64,000 nt of DNA from Bdellovibrionales bacterium. GTDB lineage: Bacteria > Bdellovibrionota > Bdellovibrionia > Bdellovibrionales > UBA1609. Positions 24,001 to 42,000 of this stretch are shown in pieces; within the stretch, counting starts at the first letter, position 1, and the number at the start of each line of letters is the position of its first letter. The position numbers were made by a program. The stretch spans positions 58,887 to 122,886 of the forward strand of contig DAHVQG010000007.1 of the NCBI GenBank assembly GCA_027317865.1, in the 5' to 3' direction.

Positions 24001-27000
24001 GCAAGATGAAGATGTCGCGCAAGTGCGCGAACGCGTGCGCGAAGCGCAATGTTTTGCACGTAAGACGCGCGGGCAAACAATTATGAATTCGCGTTTGGAG
24101 CTTGAAGCGCTTGAGGCAATGGTTCCGCCATTTGTTATGAACAACATGTTGCCTGAAATTCCGCCGTCGCGCCGCCGCCGTCTGGCTCTATTGCGTGTGG
24201 CCCGAACAATTGCCGATTTAGATAGCAGTCCGGACATCTGTACGGAGCATCTTCACGCTGCGGGTCAGTTGACATTGCGGCCGTTTCACGAATTTCGACA
24301 CGCATTTATTTGATTCGTTGACCGGCGACCCCCATTTTTGCGATAAGTAGAAGTTCAAACGCAATGAGAATTACTGCGTGATCCTTATGCGTAGTTAAAG
24401 GTGGCGTAGCCAAGTGGTTAGGCATCGGTCTGCAAAACCGAGTACGGCGGTTCAATTCCGCCCGCCACCTCCAAAAGAACGCGTCGGAAGTTCCGATGCG
24501 CAAAAAGTAAGCAAAGAATAAATATAAGTAATAATTTTAAACAGTTGGCGAGAAGGCGGTCTCTGTGGTCATTTTTCGATTATCACGCAAAATAACGCGA
24601 AATAACTCGATTTGCGGCATTCGCGTAGTTTTTGAGCGTAGTTGGCGGAGTGTGTACTACAAGTTTTGGTGCTGTTTGGTGTGCTTAGTGGATTTTGTAT
24701 CTTTGTGCTATGGCGAAGAAGCCGCAGAACTATTGCAGAGTTTAAAAAAAGTGACGACGAAATAATTTTAAAAATCTAATCGGATACGAAAACAGTCGAT
24801 GATGGCCCGTGCCAAGTAACCTGCCAGCGCGACAAAATATCTCGACCAATGAGCACGCCAAAGTTTTGATGCACCATTGGGTTTTGAATTGCGGCATTTA
24901 AATTGAAGCTCGGAATATGAATCGAAGAAATTTGCAAGTTTTGAATGCCCTTCAATGGTGTGTTGATAAATGCTGCGTCAACGACATAAAAATTTGATTC
25001 GCGAAAACCATTTGCTGTCGCATTGCGACCTTTGCCAACGGAAATCAATCCCAAATGTGTCGCAAGGGATTCGTCGATTGCTGTAGAGCTTGCTCCGGTG
25101 TCCAAATGTGCCATCACGGGAATTGCTCGACGTGGCACGGGATTTTTACTTGCGACAAATGCGGTGGCCGTTGAAACTTCAAGCAAAAAATTTAGGCCAA
25201 GTAATTGTAGGGGCATTTGCGATATATGGTGCGCGACCGCTGTGCCAGGCGGAGGAGGTGGTATAATATTAACGCCAAAATTGAAGGTATGAAAGTGCGC
25301 CATTATCTGCCTAGACAGCTGAGCGCAGGTAATTTATTTGTTCGTTTTCAGCAAGGACTTGCTGGATAATGAACTGACCAGGTTGAAAATTTGCGGCAGC
25401 AAATTCAATTGCTTGTGCAAATTGGTCGTAGACGCCCTTCACTTTTTCGTCATGTATCACAACGAATTTGTGTTTGTAAGCTGGGTCGTTAAGCCATCCC
25501 GATAGATGAGATTGAAAGTAATTAAAATTTCTGTCTTTTGAAGGATCGTTTGCCATACCACCTTATTATCACACATTTTCTTGCCTAGCCAACATGAGAA
25601 AAGTTCCGGCGTTTCATTTTGCGACAATTAAGGTCTAAGGCCTAAAACAGCGCAGCAAAGCGCCAATGGCCCGCTCGACTCGGTAGCCTCTGATAAAGGA
25701 TTCCCTTCACGATCATAAATCGTAAATTTTACGTTATAACTTGTTTCAGATTGCCATTTCATGAGTACCCGATAGCCAATCTTTCTATGAATCAGACGCT
25801 CAATCAATATATGCTCTGAATTAAAATCTGTTGAGAATTTGGGCAGCGGATCAACTCGCGCGCCGTCTGGCTTTTTCCACCCTCCATACATACGTGGCGA
25901 AATTTCATTTAAGTTTGGCTTCATGGGTTCGGGGGGCCAGCCAAGAAAATCATTGGCGACTTTCTCATCTAATTCTTTGCTAGGATTCATGCTGGCGACC
26001 TCACATAATGACAAACTTAGTCGGTTATAATTGGGATGTTTTCCGCACTTGGAGATAGCACTCTACATGGTAATGCGAAGCTGGGCGAGAATATAATTTT
26101 TGGTTACACAGGCGGCATTGATATCGTGGATCGTGAAATGGGCAACGCGAGAAATACTTCGCGTTGTTGCGGCGTTATGGCGATGAGTTCGTACAGGTAT
26201 GGAGAATTCACGTTCATGCAAAACGTGACAAAATGCGTCCCTCCTCGGGAAGTTAGACATTTTTATAAAACGTCCAAAGCTTAGACGGTTTTGGATTTTT
26301 ACGAAGCAAATTGAAGACTTGGTGTCGACGTAACGGGTCGGCACGTGGTTTGTACAGGTTAAAGGTATGGGAGACCCGCAATTTGAGGAAGAAATAGGCG
26401 GGTCGCCCTAAGCGAGGGCGTTATGAAAGAACAAAGCCGAAAGACGCTGAGCTTAAAGCTAGCGGGATTCGCGGTTGTCGCATTAGCGATTGCTAGCCTT
26501 GCGGCATTTACGACAGCTTGTTCAAAAAGTGTGGGGGGCGCGAATAATAGCAATAATAATGGAGCCGCCGATCCTACCTCGCCGACGTCAACGACTGTAG
26601 TCGTACCGACGCAAACGGTTTTGGACGGAACCGGCGGGGCTCAAGCTCCGTTAACTTTGAACAGCCTAACGGCACTTAATGAGTACCTAGTAGGTGGGAG
26701 CGCGGCGAATCTAGATGCCGTAAGCGCAGCCGTCGGCGTGAACCTTGTGAAACTGGCCACACTCAGCAACGGTGCGGGCGGTTATGACTACGAATTTGGC
26801 GGAGCCGTTACCATTGCATTTACCGGCATCGACGGCGGCGGCCCTACGTATGTTGAAGATTACAACTCACACATGCAGGGTAATCCGAACACCGTTAATT
26901 CAGATGTACAAAACAATGAATATAATTTGGTTTCCGTGCAATATCCGGCTTCAGGTTCATATCCAGGTCAATTGCCGGCCTATCATGGATTTTTTCAGAG

Positions 27001-39000: not shown

Positions 39001-42000
39001 ATAAAGTGAGCTTCGAGCGGAATTTTGTGTTGGTCGATACTTCGTGGAATAACAAGGATGGGTTCAAATCTACGAAAACCGGCGACGACCGAATCATAGA
39101 CATAGCCCCGCACCTCCTGAGTCTATTGAAAGAACTCAAATTGCAAAGTGCTGATCGTGCGTTTGTACTTCCGCGAATTCAAAAGTGGGACGATGGTTAC
39201 CAGGCCGAGGTATTGCGACAATTTTTGATCGGCATCAACATTCCGCCCGTTCGATTTCACGATTTGAGAGCTTCGTGGGCAACGATGCTTCTCAATAAAG
39301 GTGTCGAGCCAGTGAAAGTGATGGCAATGGGCGGATGGAAAGACATCAAAACCATGATGATTTACATGCGGAAAGCTGGAGTCGATATCAAAGGGAGCGC
39401 GAGCTGTTTGACGTTTCATGAACCGAACCGTGGTTCAGCCAAGGTCCTAAATTTCGACTCTGGAAGCACGCCGTAGTTTGACGAAGTGCGCACCAAAGAT
39501 TGTTCAGTTACTTAGGTGGCGAAGGCCGCCACCTCCAAATTCAAGAGTTGTGATCCTGCATGGCGCCTATTGATTCAAAAACCGGACTTTCAACACCGGA
39601 TGAAGCTCGATACCGTTCGGAGCCGAACCGCCCGCATGCGGAAAATCAAAAAATGCGACACCCGTAACTGATGCTGGGATGTTAACTCTTGTTCCACCGC
39701 TCCAGTTCTGTTTCAAATAAGATCGTGCGGCGCTAATTAACGGCAAAAACGGACTTGAAGCCCCGACGCAGCTTGGAGAGGGGATCTCAGTGACCATGGT
39801 GTTACCGGAAGAATCTTGCACGAGTAAATGGTAATCGTCGTCGGCTTCATGGCGAATTTCGATGATCGTCGCGTGAATATTAAAAACCGTATCTTCGGTC
39901 GGTGCGATCCGTGAATGTTGCGGATATGCATTCCACCTTGGCGGGTTAAACGGCAGAGGCAGTGAAACGAGGTTCGCGATCGTAGTTGGTTGAACATTAT
40001 TAACGTTCACCTGTTGGGCATCTCGATCCGTTCCGGTTTTTACCGACCATCGCCATTTGCCACACGCCAATGCCTGGCTCGACACAAATGCGAGCGCAAT
40101 ACTAAGTATTAACCCTTTCATTGATCCCCCCCTTGCGCGAGTTACGCGTCTTTGGTCTTGATCATCCCAAGAAAAAAATTGATTTGTCGAGCACCAGAAT
40201 TGTTACTTTCAATACTAAAGTCCTGGTTTCAAACAAACTTCTAACATGACAAAATTGTTCAACAATTCCAATTGTTGAGTTATGGGGCATTCGGATGGGC
40301 AGCGTCAAATTCTTTTTCGGCGCGCTCGTTCCATTTGAGCACACCCCACTGGGCGTTTTCATAAGCATTTGTATAGTCAAAGCTAAGCAGGATAAGCCCT
40401 CCAAGGCCCAAGGTCGCGTCAGCCCAAGTTACGTTTTGATTTTTGATTCCAACGTACGTCGGATAAGCTATGGCCAAAGCACCGAGTATCGCCGCAGCCA
40501 GACGAATAGCTCCACCCTTGTCGTCGCCGACGTAAAATTGCCCCAAGCCTGGAATTAGAGACCGCGCGTCGGCAACTCGCTTAGATCTCCATGGTACTTT
40601 TTCAGCTTCGTGCGCATAGACTGCAAGTTGCGATTTGGGATCTTCGTGAATCAATTCGTTAAACGCATCGTTCGGATTGGTGTGTTTAAACCCGGTCACT
40701 CCAACAGACCGCAAAGCCCAACCCAGCCGATACAGTACAAGCGGTTGCAGTTTCGAGTTCGGGTAACGTTTAAGAAATGACTCCCAAATTTGTACAGCCG
40801 CATCGGGAGCGCGAACGCGAAGATTAAAAAGATCGAAAGAACTCGCCAAAGACTGAAAAAGCGGAAAATCAGTAGCTGCGGCCAACACTTCGGTAAATAG
40901 CGTTTTGTTCGAGCGCGGCGGTTGTTCAAACCGGTAGCGATAAAAACTTTCGGCTTGCATGAACATCGTACGCTCTGCGGGCGAAACCTTCATGCCATCC
41001 ACCAGAACTAGTGTGCGTTGCAAGCGGCGCTGCGCTCTTAGATAAGTGGGATCGTTTTTCTGAATTAAAATCGGCGGGCTCGCACAGCCGGTAATAGCGA
41101 CAACCGCGAACATAAAAATGAGATACAATTTCTTCATCGGCGCTTTAATTTGACCCGCAAAATTTTATTGGAGCAAGATAATAAAAATGACTAAAAATTT
41201 TAAATTGCCGCGATGGGTACTTTATTATCGTGAACTTTTCTTTCGCATTGCAATTTTGCTTAAAGGTCTCGACGGCATTCTTGAAATTTTAGGCGGCGCC
41301 GCTTTTTTCTCGGTTGGCCCGCGGTTCATCGTCAAAGTTGTAGGCTTTCTCACGCAGGACGAAATCGCCGAAGACCCTCATGATGTGGTTGCCAATTTTC
41401 TGCGCCGTACGGCGGCCCATCTCTCGCTTTCTGGTGAGCACTTTATTGGAGCGTATTTGCTCATCGACGGAGTAATTAAAATCGCGTTGGTTGCCGCGCT
41501 TTTGAAACGGGTTCGCGGCGCTTACCCTGTCGCCGTCACCATTTTTTTCGCACTGTTTATTTATGAGTTTTACCGCTTCGCCATACATCCGAGTTTCGCG
41601 TTACTTATACTTTCGGCGGTGGACTTGATCGTGATCAGTTTAATTCTGATCGAGTACCGGTTCATGGCCTAAAAAAAATTTGCGAGTGCGGTTTAACGAA
41701 CTGTTTAACTGTATGACGTACTTGTCATTGACATCAAAACCTCACTCTGATCGAATAGCGCAAATTTCATGCAGGGGGGATATATGGGGGAGCGTTCATG
41801 GAAAGTCGTATTTCTTTTAGGGTTAGCATGCACAGTCGTCGCCGCCGGCGCGGTCGCTGCGACGATTGTGTATAAGGCAACCACGAGCATAAGTTCTGAT
41901 CCTTATAGTGTACAATTACAGAAATCTGAGGTTGAACCGGATACGTACGCTTTTGGTTCAACAATTGTAGCGGCCTTTCAAGTTGGCCGATTTGCAGGCG

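Follow-up and report, generated by a model that had tools for sequence, protein, structure and literature searches.

An integrative element at a tRNA-Cys gene of a Bdellovibrionota bacterium combines an HUH Rep with its own family-A DNA polymerase

Boundaries and Occupancy of the Integration Site

Within the 64-kb window (the whole stretch of DNA analyzed, 64,000 nucleotides, equal to positions 58887-122886 of contig C40), a 15,064-bp element is bounded by exact 14-nt direct repeats at 24462-24475 and 39526-39539. The first copy, the attL core, covers the 3' end of a tRNA-Cys (gca) gene on the + strand (24400-24473; ARAGORN; Rfam tRNA, 68.4 bits), the integration target, while the second, the attR core, starts 50 nt past the integrase stop and is enclosed by the inverted repeat GGTGGCG/CGCCACC. 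The 14-mer, CCGCCACCTCCAAA, has exactly two exact copies in the window, where 0.02 are expected by chance and two or more occurred in 0 of 100 shuffles. The start and end reported for the element in the genome-wide survey's note stand, while its offset of 64,000 has to be replaced by the true contig offset of 58,886, subtraction of which turns contig positions 83348 and 98412 into window positions 24462 and 39526.

The comparison of read runs was made on contigs only, from four runs of one study, with X1 being the probable source. In three of the four (X2, X3, and X4), a contig joins 24461 directly to 39526, with attL and attR forming its left and right sides, skipping 15,064 nt with 14 letters shared (depths of 9.81, 6.2, and 8.4, respectively; the shorter side in X4 is 36 letters only). 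In X1, the contigs of the element have depths of 12.6, 9.7, and 9.83 versus 18.7 in the right flank, and a 46-nt contig of depth 9.2 spans 39526-39555, preceded by 16 letters equal to tRNA positions 24446-24461. This contig is the empty site, at about half of the flank depth, and the filled and empty states therefore occur together in one sample. The survey's view of a precisely bounded element that is polymorphic in the natural population is thus borne out by the repeat pair, the flanks joined at the repeat in three runs, and the empty-site contig in X1, and the element is probably still gained or lost in that population. No circular (attP) joint was seen in the contigs of the four runs, contigs being prone to drop rare forms. 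The flank contigs of the empty-site runs carry scattered SNPs relative to the window, which indicates that different strains are being compared.

The Family-A Polymerase

The right arm of the element is one rightward block encoding PolA, a SpoVG-fold protein, the HUH Rep, a Zn-ribbon protein, an excisionase, and a tyrosine integrase. The polymerase is Klenow-like, with a 3'-5' exonuclease and a polymerase domain and no 5' nuclease, and is present as two fragments. The N-terminal one (34403-34729, + strand; likelier start the ATG at 34449) contains Exo I (DFETD) and Exo II (HNAAFD) and shares 40-49% identity with the N-terminal parts of the polymerases of the relatives. The C-terminal one (34707-36155, + strand; DNA_pol_A 7.1e-76, phrog_17 9.2e-92) contains Exo III (YAKKD) and the polymerase domain with motifs A, B, and C; it lies in the +1 frame, overlaps the N-fragment by 23 nt, and has GGGAG 6 nt ahead of its GTG start. 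Exo I-III are all present, the columns of motifs A, B, and C are invariant in the alignment, and the polymerase of the relative G069 aligns to the Taq large fragment (3.5e-59) with these three motifs matched.

Separate exonuclease and polymerase ORFs had been taken for the design of the family, which does not hold, since most homologues are single ORFs: two of the three scorable genome relatives (L026, 611 aa; L028, 559 aa) have an unbroken gene, as do 10 of the 14 homologues from databases (554-590 aa). The break separates Exo II from Exo III within the exonuclease domain, and the same +1 break is found in L027 and, as judged from its N-terminus, in P0133, so that at least one further member, and probably a second, is split there too. 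With such a shift inside the exonuclease domain, the present copy may yield an enzyme without proofreading or no enzyme at all.

This raises the question of whether the element is an inert relic, i.e., a decaying remnant of an integrated plasmid or prophage with a polymerase pseudogene, its presence or absence stemming from an old insertion that recombination segregates among strains and not from present mobility. The frameshift in a gene that is mostly a single ORF elsewhere would fit, as would an orphan 403-aa ORF (see below), the absence of a circle from the contigs, and the SNPs in the empty-site flanks. However, both polymerase fragments retain their catalytic motifs, conservation between the two split members compared is as high in the N-fragment (49%) as in the polymerase part (52%), and the other core genes are all intact, at 31-58% identity across relatives. 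Furthermore, the empty site matches exactly the attB that Int-mediated excision or non-insertion would leave, with the 14-nt core kept once, and empty and filled sites stand at about 1:1 in one sample, so that decay appears improbable to us.

The Rep and Its Neighboring Genes

The SpoVG-fold protein (36118-36438, + strand) probably starts at the ATG just past the polymerase stop; its Pfam SpoVG match (9.9e-5) lies under the gathering score, and the 10 best PDB matches of its model (pLDDT 82.1) are all SpoVG (TM 0.57-0.78). It is followed by the HUH rolling-circle Rep (36596-37459, + strand; REP_ORF2-G2P 1.8e-13, phrog_3419 1.9e-13), which has two tyrosines, Y198 and Y202, and in which TLTL, H159/H161, and Y198/K201/Y202 are invariant among 13 sequences. 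The top fold matches of its model (pLDDT 72.6) are the Helitron HUH domain, pMV158 RepB, AAV Rep, and WDV Rep, all of them weak (best E 3.5e-3, none at 1e-3); the HUH and tyrosine motifs and the Helitron match agree with the survey. Pfam RepSA scores 18.2 bits against a cutoff of 34. The superfamily-I HUH initiators, which it resembles, correspond to the phiX174 gpA/pC194 group. The sole PLSDB match is a 1,442-bp Halobacterium plasmid rated non-mobilizable, which fits a replicase role.

The name of the Rep family, referring to phage ORF2/G2P initiators, brings to mind an integrated ssDNA (inovirus-like) phage, and both REP_ORF2-G2P and phrog_3419 do include phage initiators. This reading is very improbable, given that the Rep has no relative in IMG/VR or among 50,697 phage records and that the 17 ORFs scanned with Pfam and PHROGs contain no morphogenesis (Zot-like), coat, or secretin gene; moreover, such phages are not known to carry a family-A polymerase or 15 kb of cargo.

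The Zn-ribbon protein (37568-37972, + strand; 134 aa), with CxxC...CxxC in its sequence, has homologues 3' of rep in L026, L027, L029, L089, L097, L098, and L100. Next come the excisionase-type HTH_17 protein (38071-38382, + strand; HTH_17 2.1e-12, phrog_66, TIGR01764 3.8e-6) and the tyrosine integrase (38373-39476, + strand; Phage_integrase 2.7e-21, Phage_int_M 3.2e-7, phrog_1 4.7e-50), which is 47-49% identical in L026, L027, L029, and L089. The Pfam and PHROGs scores given earlier for the polymerase, the Rep, the integrase, and HTH_17 were all reproduced.

A Candidate Replication Origin

Upstream of rep, at 36470-36545 (+ strand), a 5-bp hairpin abuts a 16-bp GC-rich hairpin, which is followed by TTCTCGG and then by a second CTCGG (z -6.2, 0 of 200 shuffles). 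This twin hairpin is found in all six family members with differing stem sequences (z from -5.0 to -7.5, 0 of 200 shuffles each), and TCTCG(G/A) is conserved after it. The structure, considered as a terminator, is not terminator-like, and it has no Rfam match. The combination of twin hairpin and TCTCG(G/A) upstream of rep is reported here as new, and its conserved structure alone makes it a candidate origin; the TTCTCG(G/A) stretch presumably resembles a CTTGAT-type nick sequence.

A hairpin with a conserved motif beside rep would be as compatible with an oriT as with a dso. The element could accordingly be an integrative mobilizable one, in which the HUH protein serves mainly as a relaxase at the twin hairpin, a coresident conjugative element transfers the nicked strand, and PolA aids complementary-strand synthesis. 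Many integrated elements use HUH nickases as relaxases, and mobilization proteins of the RCR-initiator type are reported for streptococcal IMEs (PMC5357655; PMC5704250); in addition, several further Xis-Int pairs in the genome indicate that other mobile elements are present. In spite of that, the top Rep families are replication initiators (REP_ORF2-G2P, phrog_3419) and not relaxase families, the plasmid carrying the Rep homologue is rated non-mobilizable, and no coupling-protein or mating-pore gene was detected by Pfam within the element, which leaves mobilization as its main mode an improbable account.

The Left Arm and the Variable Slot

The left arm begins with an aspartyl-protease-like protein (24776-25303, - strand; 175 aa; Asp_protease_2 8.8e-8) and two small ORFs of 81 and 128 aa (25311-26014, - strand) without a family match in Pfam, PHROGs, PADLOC, or NCBIfam. 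A 326-aa protein with an N-terminus that looks lipoprotein-like from sequence (26423-27403, + strand) is a paralogue of the chromosomal ORF at 19277-20251 (73% identity, E 7e-157), and its gene has a copy of about 83% nucleotide identity on an X2 host contig. The largest cargo gene (27637-30495, + strand) encodes a 952-aa UvrD/PcrA-like SF1 helicase with a fused PD-(D/E)XK (Cas4-like) nuclease (UvrD-helicase 4.4e-64, UvrD_C 1e-26, PDDEXK_1 2.7e-21; phrog_1967); its top NCBIfam match, PcrA (2.9e-64), is far under the cutoff, its PADLOC matches are generic and GajB-like, and it is not conserved, with no tblastn match in the relatives. Two ORFs of 82 and 236 aa (30522-31520, + strand) have no match in the same four databases.

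An HTH_3 (Cro/cI-type) regulator (31566-31793, - strand; 7.1e-10), 42% identical to a homologue in L028, is divergent from the rightward block, with promoter-like sites on the + strand at 31786-31847. The variable slot after this switch holds a 403-aa orphan (32072-33283, + strand; phrog_17 2.5e-5 over residues 51-232), for which no homologue was found among 5.8e9 proteins. It has CxxC pairs in its C-terminal part, and its N-terminal part may be RNase H-like or DEDD-type exonuclease-like; the similarity of its Atlas features to those of RNase_H_2 clusters (0.91, with a structural TM of 0.40-0.47) is a lead only. Directly 5' of the polymerase lies a 315-aa ORF without a family match (33443-34390, + strand); ORFs of about 300 aa occupy the equivalent position in L026, L027, and L028, though hhalign gives a probability of only 0.5% for homology. 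Comparison with the relatives confirms that cargo outside the core is variable: what the left arm and the slot behind the switch carry is exchangeable, and the cargo is defense-related in some relatives (PDC-S65 SIR2, 5e-198, in L026; Abi_C in L027).

Relatives and Extent of the Family

The right arm is syntenic in four genome relatives, which a genome contig search recovered as the survey had reported, and in one metagenome contig. All seven core genes are present in L026 and L027, six in L029, where the contig end falls inside the polymerase gene, and six in L089, whereas L028 has the polymerase, SpoVG, Rep, Xis, and a different integrase. The proposed core of PolA, SpoVG-fold protein, Rep, Zn-ribbon, Xis, and Int consequently stands, except that the Zn-ribbon gene is absent from L028. 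L026 is bounded by a 13-nt tRNA-Met 3'-end repeat and L028 by a tRNA-Ser one, as had been claimed; the latter occurs in three copies (17 or 21 nt), indicating two elements in tandem. L027 is bounded by a tRNA-Ser 3'-end repeat of 9 nt only. Family members, whose genomes are all MAGs, range from 9 to 15 kb.

Among 400 other genomes of the phylum, 2 contain a close homologue of the polymerase, as noted before. The supposed five-member family has to be extended by a sixth DNA-level member, L089, and by 14 further polymerase-clade proteins in metagenomes. The SpoVG-Rep-Zn-ribbon module is widespread without PolA, beside serine or tyrosine recombinases and defense genes, and it is much commoner in that form, most SpoVG-Rep elements doing without a polymerase. 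PolA is therefore an addition within a single subfamily, and a replicon of this kind does not require it. As the survey had also found, no helicase is conserved in the core across the relatives, nor is a primase or SSB.

Relation to Known Mobile Elements

In the cited passages, pSAM2 is described as having a rep, xis, int operon, RCR, and tRNA integration (PMC2440964), and the rep-(Zn)-xis-int order of the element matches this operon. pSAM2-type AICEs, as these sources describe them (PMC2440964; PMC3218068), further share a size of 10-20 kb, site-specific insertion at tRNA 3' ends mediated by a tyrosine integrase together with Xis, a gene for an RCR initiator immediately 5' of xis and int in the same operon, and a repressor-controlled switch; the weak RepSA signal of the Rep is another likeness. 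The element differs from these actinomycete systems in its host phylum, Bdellovibrionota, in having no FtsK/SpoIIIE-type Tra, Spd, Pra/KorSA, or Nudix genes, in a two-tyrosine Rep that falls under the RepSA cutoff, and in the added family-A polymerase, SpoVG-fold protein, and Zn-ribbon; AICE replication is described with host Pol III (PMC3218068).

Pipolins, in the cited account (10.1101/2024.05.22.595293), are likewise short and direct-repeat-flanked at tRNA genes, combine their own DNA polymerase, recombinase, and excisionase in a small conserved core with exchangeable, often defense, cargo, and can occur as two elements in tandem at one tRNA, as in L028. Their polymerase, however, is a primer-independent one of family B (piPolB), whereas that of the element is Klenow-like and would be primed by the HUH nick and not de novo. 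With superfamily-I HUH plasmids and phages, as defined in the cited part of PMC3218068, the element shares motif 1, HUH, and the two-tyrosine motif 3. Like rolling-circle replicons it has a hairpin-plus-repeat candidate origin beside rep and a Rep homologue on a 1.4-kb plasmid, yet it is integrated and carries Int, Xis, and its own polymerase.

As a small, tRNA-integrated island that encodes Int, Xis, and a Cro/cI-type regulator besides its replication module, the element also resembles phage satellites (PICI, P4-like, marine VEIMEs); their replication module is of another type, usually a primase-helicase in place of an HUH Rep with PolA. As a satellite, it would be excised upon helper infection, amplified by Rep and PolA, and packaged in helper capsids, with its cargo interfering with phages. 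The defense-type cargo of L026 and L027 would suit such a role, and virion-encapsidated marine elements without capsid genes, some of them with DNA polymerase genes, provide a precedent in the cited passages of PMC9618062. On the other hand, PHROGs recognized no capsid, portal, terminase, capsid-remodeling, packaging-redirecting, or helper-interaction gene in the 17 ORFs, and no helper was identified. The Rep, as stated above, has no viral relative in the collections searched, and polymerase identity is at most 32.4% to phage, close to the 32% claimed, and at most 30% to IMG/VR relatives. We therefore consider a satellite unlikely, if less so than the other alternatives.

Proposed Cycle

The reading that we favor, with modest confidence, is that of a capsid-less integrative element without recognizable transfer genes (no FtsK or T4SS gene by Pfam in the 17 ORFs), in which a pSAM2-like rep-xis-int module would be served by the element's own Klenow-like polymerase. 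The tyrosine integrase with its excisionase would have placed it in the 3' end of tRNA-Cys, the 14-nt core restoring the tRNA. De-repression through the divergent Cro/cI-type regulator would turn on the block in the order variable slot, 315-aa ORF, PolA, SpoVG-fold protein, twin hairpin, Rep, Zn-ribbon, Xis, and Int, following which Xis and Int would cut out a circle and the two-tyrosine Rep would nick the DNA at or next to the twin hairpin that precedes rep. The polymerase would then extend the 3'-OH in rolling-circle synthesis, with the SpoVG-fold and Zn-ribbon proteins as putative nucleic-acid-binding accessories, and the host would supply helicase and lagging-strand functions, or the UvrD/PcrA-like cargo helicase might do so in this member; transfer between cells is likewise presumed. 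The pairing of an HUH Rep with the element's own DNA polymerase is unusual.

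Integration Site and Presence in Natural Populations

The 15,064-bp element lies in the 3′ end of tRNA-Cys(gca) (24400-24473), the sole tRNA gene that ARAGORN finds in the window. The last 12 bases of this gene and the 2 that follow form the repeat CCGCCACCTCCAAA (24462-24475, attL), which recurs exactly at 39526-39539 (attR); a 14-mer match of this kind occurs twice in the 64 kb against 0.02 expected by chance, and none of 100 shuffles contained two copies. The element carries direct repeats, one copy of which doubles as the 3′ end of the intact tRNA gene, a tyrosine integrase with an excisionase at one end (Phage_integrase 2.7e-21, phrog_1 4.7e-50, HTH_17 2.1e-12) and, in contigs, a natural empty site (attB) with a single core copy, as tRNA-integrating tyrosine-recombinase elements do. 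The integrase gene ends 50 nt before the right repeat, and the G+C content is 0.37-0.46 across 27001-39000 versus ~0.45-0.53 in most flanking kilobase windows. The source genome comprises 2.65 Mb in 42 contigs, the window being on C40; the offset of 64,000 given in the genome-wide survey's note is wrong, and its positions 83348 and 98412 match the element once 58,886 is subtracted. The right repeat is itself placed inside an inverted repeat, GGTGGCG-aagg-CCGCCACC (39516-39539), which mimics both strands of the tRNA acceptor stem and may provide candidate core-type binding sites for the integrase.

A search of sequencing runs returned eight from four studies. The four that were compared (X1-X4, shares of 1.00, 0.50, 0.48 and 0.40) are of one study and one habitat, and X1 may be the source; the rest (X5-X8, 0.08-0.18) stem from other studies. 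Contigs from three of the four join 24461 directly to 39526, at a depth of 9.81 in X2, 6.2 in X3 and 8.4 in X4, with merely 36 letters on the shorter side of the X4 contig. As the joint is exact, skipping 15,064 nt with 14 letters common to both sides, X2-X4 contain an intact tRNA-Cys free of the element, next to low-depth contigs (2.5-3.4) that match parts of it. In X1, three contigs with zero differences from the window cover the element at depths of 12.6, 9.7 and 9.83, with 18.7 in the right flank, and a 46-nt contig of depth 9.2 consists of 39526-39555 preceded by 16 letters identical to 24446-24461. The latter is the empty site, present in the same sample as the element at about half of the flank depth, so that the presence/absence polymorphism claimed earlier is borne out both between runs and within one. 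The circle joint from 39539 to 24476 (attP) was absent from the contigs of all four runs, in which rare forms are dropped.

The X1 contigs of the element break at 34250-34265 and at 36537-36564, the second break falling at the candidate origin described below, and the depth steps down from 12.6 in the left 9.8 kb to 9.7-9.8 in the right 5.3 kb, which could reflect a co-occurring variant with the same left arm or the behaviour of the assembly at a GC-rich hairpin. Further excisionase-integrase pairs or integrases, 26-40% identical to those of the element, are found in the same genome on C11 (291586-292988), C39 (23175-24555), C14, C37 and C5, a sign that several more integrative elements reside there. 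Neither Rep nor the polymerase clade was found in a second copy in this genome, the only other match to the polymerase being the host Pol I on C22.

Gene Content

The left arm (24476 to ~31500) encodes an aspartyl-protease-like protein, two small unknown proteins, a 326-aa protein, a 952-aa UvrD/PcrA-like helicase fused to a PD-(D/E)XK nuclease and two more unknowns. The 326-aa protein (26423-27403) has a lipoprotein-like N-terminus and is 73% identical to the product of a chromosomal ORF (19277-20251) located ~4 kb (4.1 kb) to the left of the tRNA-Cys attachment site, which suggests that this cargo gene was captured from, or exchanged with, host DNA near that site. A leftward HTH_3 regulator gene (31566-31793) faces a rightward block, with promoter-like sites between the two.

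The rightward block encodes, in order, a 403-aa orphan, a 315-aa unknown protein, the two polymerase ORFs, a SpoVG-fold protein, the HUH initiator Rep (36596-37459), a Zn-ribbon protein (37568-37972), an HTH_17 excisionase (38071-38382) and the tyrosine integrase (38373-39476). The 403-aa protein, which matches no PDB sequence and has no homologue in a search of 5.8e9 proteins, may be RNase H/DEDD-like and resemble an exonuclease in its N-terminal part, on the basis of a phrog_17 match (2.5e-5) and Atlas leads with TM values of 0.40-0.47. A ~300-aa ORF directly before the polymerase, here the 315-aa one, is found at the same position in all four complete members and was considered as a core gene, a candidacy dropped for want of homology: hhalign gave a probability of 0.5% between the 315-aa protein and the ORFs of three relatives, Atlas returned unnamed clusters only, and position alone appears to be common to the members.

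Among the 17 ORFs scanned, there were no matches to capsid, portal, terminase, FtsK-like or type-IV-secretion families and no structural or packaging PHROG. A prophage of the single-stranded DNA kind is accordingly regarded as very improbable. A phage satellite is an unlikely reading as well. Satellites lacking capsid genes, some of them with polymerase genes, are described from marine virions in the excerpted text of PMC9618062, which speaks for this possibility. However, nothing in the element points to packaging, and the helper-packaging genes of satellites (terS, capsid remodelling) are unmatched among the 17 ORFs scanned with PHROGs.

Relatives Carrying the Polymerase

The polymerase is matched in 385 of 401 genomes of the phylum at E ≤ 1e-20, nearly always at ~30% through the ~900-aa Pol I. 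Close homologues are confined, as the survey had claimed, to 2 of the 400 other genomes, namely G069 (44%, 1.3e-119) and G245 (46%, 1.2e-111). A search of genome_contigs with the single protein gave no related locus, and one with a three-sequence alignment gave five confirmed loci out of 146 pattern matches. Four of these are close and belong to MAGs of Bdellovibrionales, Bdellovibrionota or Oligoflexia (L026, L027, L028 in G069 and L029 in G245); the fifth, from a Clostridium MAG, was rejected as a relative, with 31% identity over 152 residues and an unrelated context. The family is larger than the five members first counted, since the metagenome contig L089 constitutes a sixth.

By tblastn, L026 and L027 have the order N-terminal polymerase fragment, polymerase, SpoVG, Rep, Zn-ribbon, excisionase and integrase, and L029 has the same order minus the N-terminal fragment because its contig ends inside the polymerase gene. 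L028 encodes the polymerase, a SpoVG-like protein missed by tblastn (31% identity, pairwise E 1e-18), Rep, an HTH_17 excisionase and a different tyrosine integrase; no Zn-ribbon gene was found in it. The relatives measure ~9.3-11 kb, versus 15 kb here. L026 is bounded by 13 nt of a tRNA-Met 3′ end, and L027 has merely 9 nt in common with tRNA-Ser(gct), at the expected place ~60 nt after the integrase gene. In L028, the 3′ end of tRNA-Ser(gga) occurs three times (17 of 21, 21 and 21 nt), which indicates two elements in tandem: at L028:4737-21296 (G069 contig C50), a ~9.3-kb polymerase element is seen beside a 7.2-kb one that has its own 422-aa integrase-like ORF next to tRNA-Ser.

The cargo of this subfamily includes, in L026, a PADLOC PDC-S65 SIR2 protein (5e-198); L027 contributes Abi_C and Kelch proteins and L028 a DUF4379 protein. 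The ORFs at the left ends of L026 (432 aa) and L028 (430 aa) bear no resemblance to each other, nor do the small ones beside them. In L089, a ~94-nt palindromic hairpin (3670-3763) lies ~100 nt after the integrase gene. It scores 41 and 39.5 bits on its two strands against a miRNA-precursor model whose gathering score is 97. As both strands match equally, it is nothing more than a long hairpin, which may be associated with att.

The Polymerase and Its Split

Motifs A, B and C of family-A polymerases are present, with D253-R260, R301/K305/Y313/G314 and H425/D426/E427 invariant in alignment A3; their Asp, Lys/Tyr and Asp-Glu residues presumably have the usual catalytic roles. In G069, the polymerase is a single 559-aa ORF containing Exo I (DFET), Exo II (HNIAFD) and Exo III (YAKDD) in addition to the polymerase motifs, and in its alignment to the large fragment of Taq polymerase (3.5e-59) motifs A, B and C fall in register; that of L026 is likewise one ORF (611 aa). 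No 5′-3′ exonuclease Pfam domain, as in the 5′ nuclease of full-length Pol I, was found in the element, and the clade proteins have 554-611 aa versus ~880-930 aa for the cellular Pol I matches that carry PF02739/PF01367. The protein database holds 14 further clade members beyond that of G069 itself, ten of them 554-590 aa long; the next best matches are cellular Pol I proteins at ~33% (E 1e-58). The earlier limit of about 32% identity to phage agrees with a best phage record of 32.4% and with at most 30% in IMG/VR (58 loci).

In the window, Exo I and II are encoded by ORF 34403-34729 and Exo III by ORF 34707-36155 in the +1 frame, although all three stand in a single ORF in L026, L028 and 10 of the 14 database homologues. 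What had been described as separate exonuclease and polymerase ORFs is hence a break that divides the exonuclease domain itself, between Exo II and Exo III, and L027 has the identical +1 change at the same point. The contig of X1 in Logan, made from the same reads as the assembly, equals the window across the break with zero difference. In both split genes, GGAG precedes by 6-8 nt a GTG that opens the second ORF, and the zero-frame stops and preceding codons differ (GTT TGA in the window versus TCA TAA in L027). A programmed +1 frameshift was considered and set aside, the window and L027 having no common slippery site; a separate start of the second ORF at the putative GTG start behind GGAG is favoured.

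Among the shorter database proteins, P0130 (478 aa) is the second ORF of L027, P0133 (473 aa) begins at the same point with a literal Leu that is taken to represent a TTG start, and the very divergent P0135 (494 aa) also starts near the break; P0134 (444 aa) begins with the Exo I region, its shortness being at the C-terminal end. In a quickly built tree (23 rows, branch support by SH-aLRT only), from which the partial L089 was omitted and in which P0130 and P0121 represent L027 and L028, the window groups with the split P0133 and the intact P0129 (561 aa) at a support of 98, and P0130 falls outside. The break therefore arose more than once or reverted. Between the window and L027, the split members with DNA, the N-terminal fragments are 49% and the polymerase parts 52% identical and all Exo motifs are kept, which argues, at the level of sequence, against a recent disabling lesion. 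The element may all the same be an inert relic, the divided exonuclease being a mark of decay, a reading to which we give a slim chance.

Residue 309 of the 482-aa ORF (34707-36155), which aligns to Phe667 of Taq polymerase in motif B, is Leu in all three aligned clade members; Phe or Tyr at this position has a role in sugar selectivity.

Rep, SpoVG-Fold and Zn-Ribbon Proteins

Superfamily I of HUH initiators is defined by two tyrosines in the excerpted text of PMC3218068. The motifs TLTL (106-109), H159-x-H161 and Y198-x-x-K201-Y202 are invariant among 13 full-length Reps, which are 43-56% identical to that of the window and also keep the N-terminal Cys 72, 77 and 80. The Rep model has a mean pLDDT of 72.6 (mostly 65-93 for residues 50-282), lower than the 85 reported before because the alignment was smaller, and adopts an HUH nuclease fold, with all Foldseek E values above 1e-3. 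The best PDB match is the Helitron transposase 7lcc (E 3.5e-3, probability 1.00), followed by pMV158 RepB (3dkx), AAV5 Rep (1m55), wheat dwarf virus Rep (6we0) and SIRV1 ORF119. No relatives of Rep were found in 50,697 phage records or in IMG/VR, and the single match among the 72,556 plasmids of PLSDB is NZ_CP089596.1, a 1,442-bp plasmid of Halobacterium zhouii (34.9% over 56% of the query), an archaeal mini-replicon with the same initiator core.

The SpoVG assignment is based on sequence together with fold: the protein of the window scores 22.8 bits in Pfam, under the cut-off of 29.6, those of the Rep-family loci L098 and L093 score 33.0 and 33.5 bits, and the model (pLDDT 82.1) has only SpoVG structures among its ten best PDB matches (TM 0.57-0.78).

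A Candidate Origin Between the SpoVG-Like Gene and rep

At 36470-36521, between the SpoVG-like gene and rep, a 5-bp hairpin directly abuts a 16-bp GC-rich hairpin, followed by CCAAAATGTTCTCGG and, five bases on, by CTCGG. Two abutting hairpins with different stem sequences occupy the same place in all six members; folded as DNA they have z values of -5.0 to -7.5, and in each member none of 200 shuffles was as good. RNAalifold on a MAFFT alignment recovered the small hairpin alone, with compensatory changes in three of its five pairs; the long hairpin being too variable in length to align, per-sequence folds were used. TCTCG(G/A) follows the long hairpin in six of six, and in three of them (the window, L026 and L027) a second CTCG(G/A) comes within 3-6 nt. 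There is no T-run after the hairpins, the terminator scan does not contain this site, and Rfam has no family for the twin hairpin. From their position and conservation, we infer that the twin hairpin and TCTCG(G/A) are a candidate double-strand origin or Rep-binding site; the structure would suit a single-strand origin, or else an RNA leader, just as well. The conserved twin hairpin offers a concrete site for testing.

Relatives without the polymerase have a different, more elaborate conserved element in this gap (L091:7732-7862, L094:9790-9925, L097:9838-9990, L099:343-478, L100:695-825, L103:9674-9810, L105:423-560, L107:3383-3500 and L110:1669-1790), which consists of an outer hairpin CTTCCAG...CTGGAAG, the invariant stretch GGGC-N3-CGGCA, a variable hairpin that CGGCAG/CTGCCG closes and a run of A. 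AAGGGTCT, the loop of the first hairpin, seems to base-pair with AGACCCTT further downstream, and changes in one are matched in the other (GCCTCT/AGAGGC in L094, GGCTCT/AGAGCC in L097; covariation judged by eye only), so that the element looks pseudoknot-like; the five of nine loci scanned against Rfam (L091, L099, L100, L105 and L110) gave no match. Six loci with distant Reps of 31-38% identity (L018-L023, in Acidobacteriota, Gammaproteobacteria and CPR MAGs) have in common a near-identical TTCTTGACT-A-TATTAGATCATCTCAACAG-like stretch close to where rep is estimated to begin; its CTTGA core may resemble nick sites of the pC194/phiX type.

The Wider SpoVG-Rep Family

Thirty-two further Rep-bearing loci, 8 genomic and 24 metagenomic, were checked. 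The polymerase clade is present in one, L089, and no polymerase was found in loci with at least 6 kb upstream of rep. A SpoVG-like gene lies just upstream of rep in 9 of the 32 by tblastn, and additionally in L093 and L098 by Pfam, and a Zn-ribbon gene just downstream in 4, many contigs being so short that absences mean little. Pfam covered 70 of the 110 ORFs around rep, a set that excludes L103 and L091 entirely and, from L094, L097 and L108, seven ORFs at the edges, and revealed large serine recombinases in L093, L094 and L098 and tyrosine integrases in L097 and L108. The neighbours of rep include ThsB-TIR, an Eco57I/MmeI-type enzyme, an N6_N4 methylase, DUF2326 (ABC-3C), SRA-HNH and an SMC-like ATPase. 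The polymerase is thus an addition to an older, widespread integrative replicon of the SpoVG-Rep-(Zn) type. Against 1.84e9 cluster representatives, the Rep profile matched 7,532 at E ≤ 1e-3, 1,919 at ≤ 1e-10 and 179 at ≤ 1e-30, and the much larger polymerase-less family is counted at the first of these thresholds. Its serine or tyrosine recombinases and its defence genes suggest a wide, little-explored reservoir of islands that carry defence functions.

Comparison with Known Elements and Proposed Model

Integrated elements with rolling-circle replication are well known, including the AICEs of actinomycetes, ICEs and IMEs, and elements with their own family-B polymerase are known as pipolins and casposons. 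The element resembles AICEs of the pSAM2 type in its rep-(Zn)-xis-int order, rolling-circle initiator and tRNA integration, the excerpted account of pSAM2 giving a rep, xis, int operon (PMC2440964). It differs from them in that its Rep falls outside RepSA (PF20199 18.2 bits versus a cut-off of 34), that no FtsK/SpoIIIE-like Tra translocase was found among its 17 ORFs with Pfam, PHROGs or NCBIfam, and that the conjugation genes which define AICEs are absent. A mobilizable element in which the HUH protein Rep acts as a relaxase, to be served by transfer functions other than its own, is judged improbable. With pipolins, as far as the excerpted text of 10.1101/2024.05.22.595293 goes, the element has in common a compact core that includes a polymerase, cargo that can be exchanged and the insertion of two elements in tandem at a single tRNA; its polymerase is of family A, not the primer-independent family-B piPolB. 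Word searches of open-access text, which do not prove absence, yielded literature on AICEs, IMEs, pipolins and satellites; no tRNA-integrating element pairing an HUH initiator with a dedicated family-A polymerase was described there, and neither were such elements in Bdellovibrionota, supplements and subscription literature lying outside these searches.

On balance, the element probably is an integrative, excisable rolling-circle replicon with its own Klenow-like polymerase. A more far-reaching reading, which we advance tentatively and as the lesser possibility when all of its parts are taken jointly, combines a self-synthesizing element, a functional +1 break and a large polymerase-less class of defence carriers. 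In this model, Rep would nick the twin-hairpin origin to create a primer, from which the dedicated Klenow-like family-A polymerase would copy the circle after excision, with little dependence on the host replisome.

If this model holds, the element would represent an undescribed kind, a family-A counterpart of the pipolins. The +1 break, which recurs in two lineages at least and perhaps in four without loss of any motif, would on this view be functional and no sign of decay; it could yield a proofreading polymerase made of two chains, or enzyme with and without proofreading in a ratio tuned by frameshifting. The recurrent split of the exonuclease domain lends itself to the question of whether polymerases that are split or frameshifted can function. 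The polymerase-less SpoVG-Rep-Zn family with its pseudoknot-like element would likewise be a large unrecognised class of integrative rolling-circle defence carriers. Because the presence of the element varies in nature, its mobility can be tested in samples that already exist, and, if the polymerase serves the element, it would provide small mobile elements with a third route to independence from the replisome.
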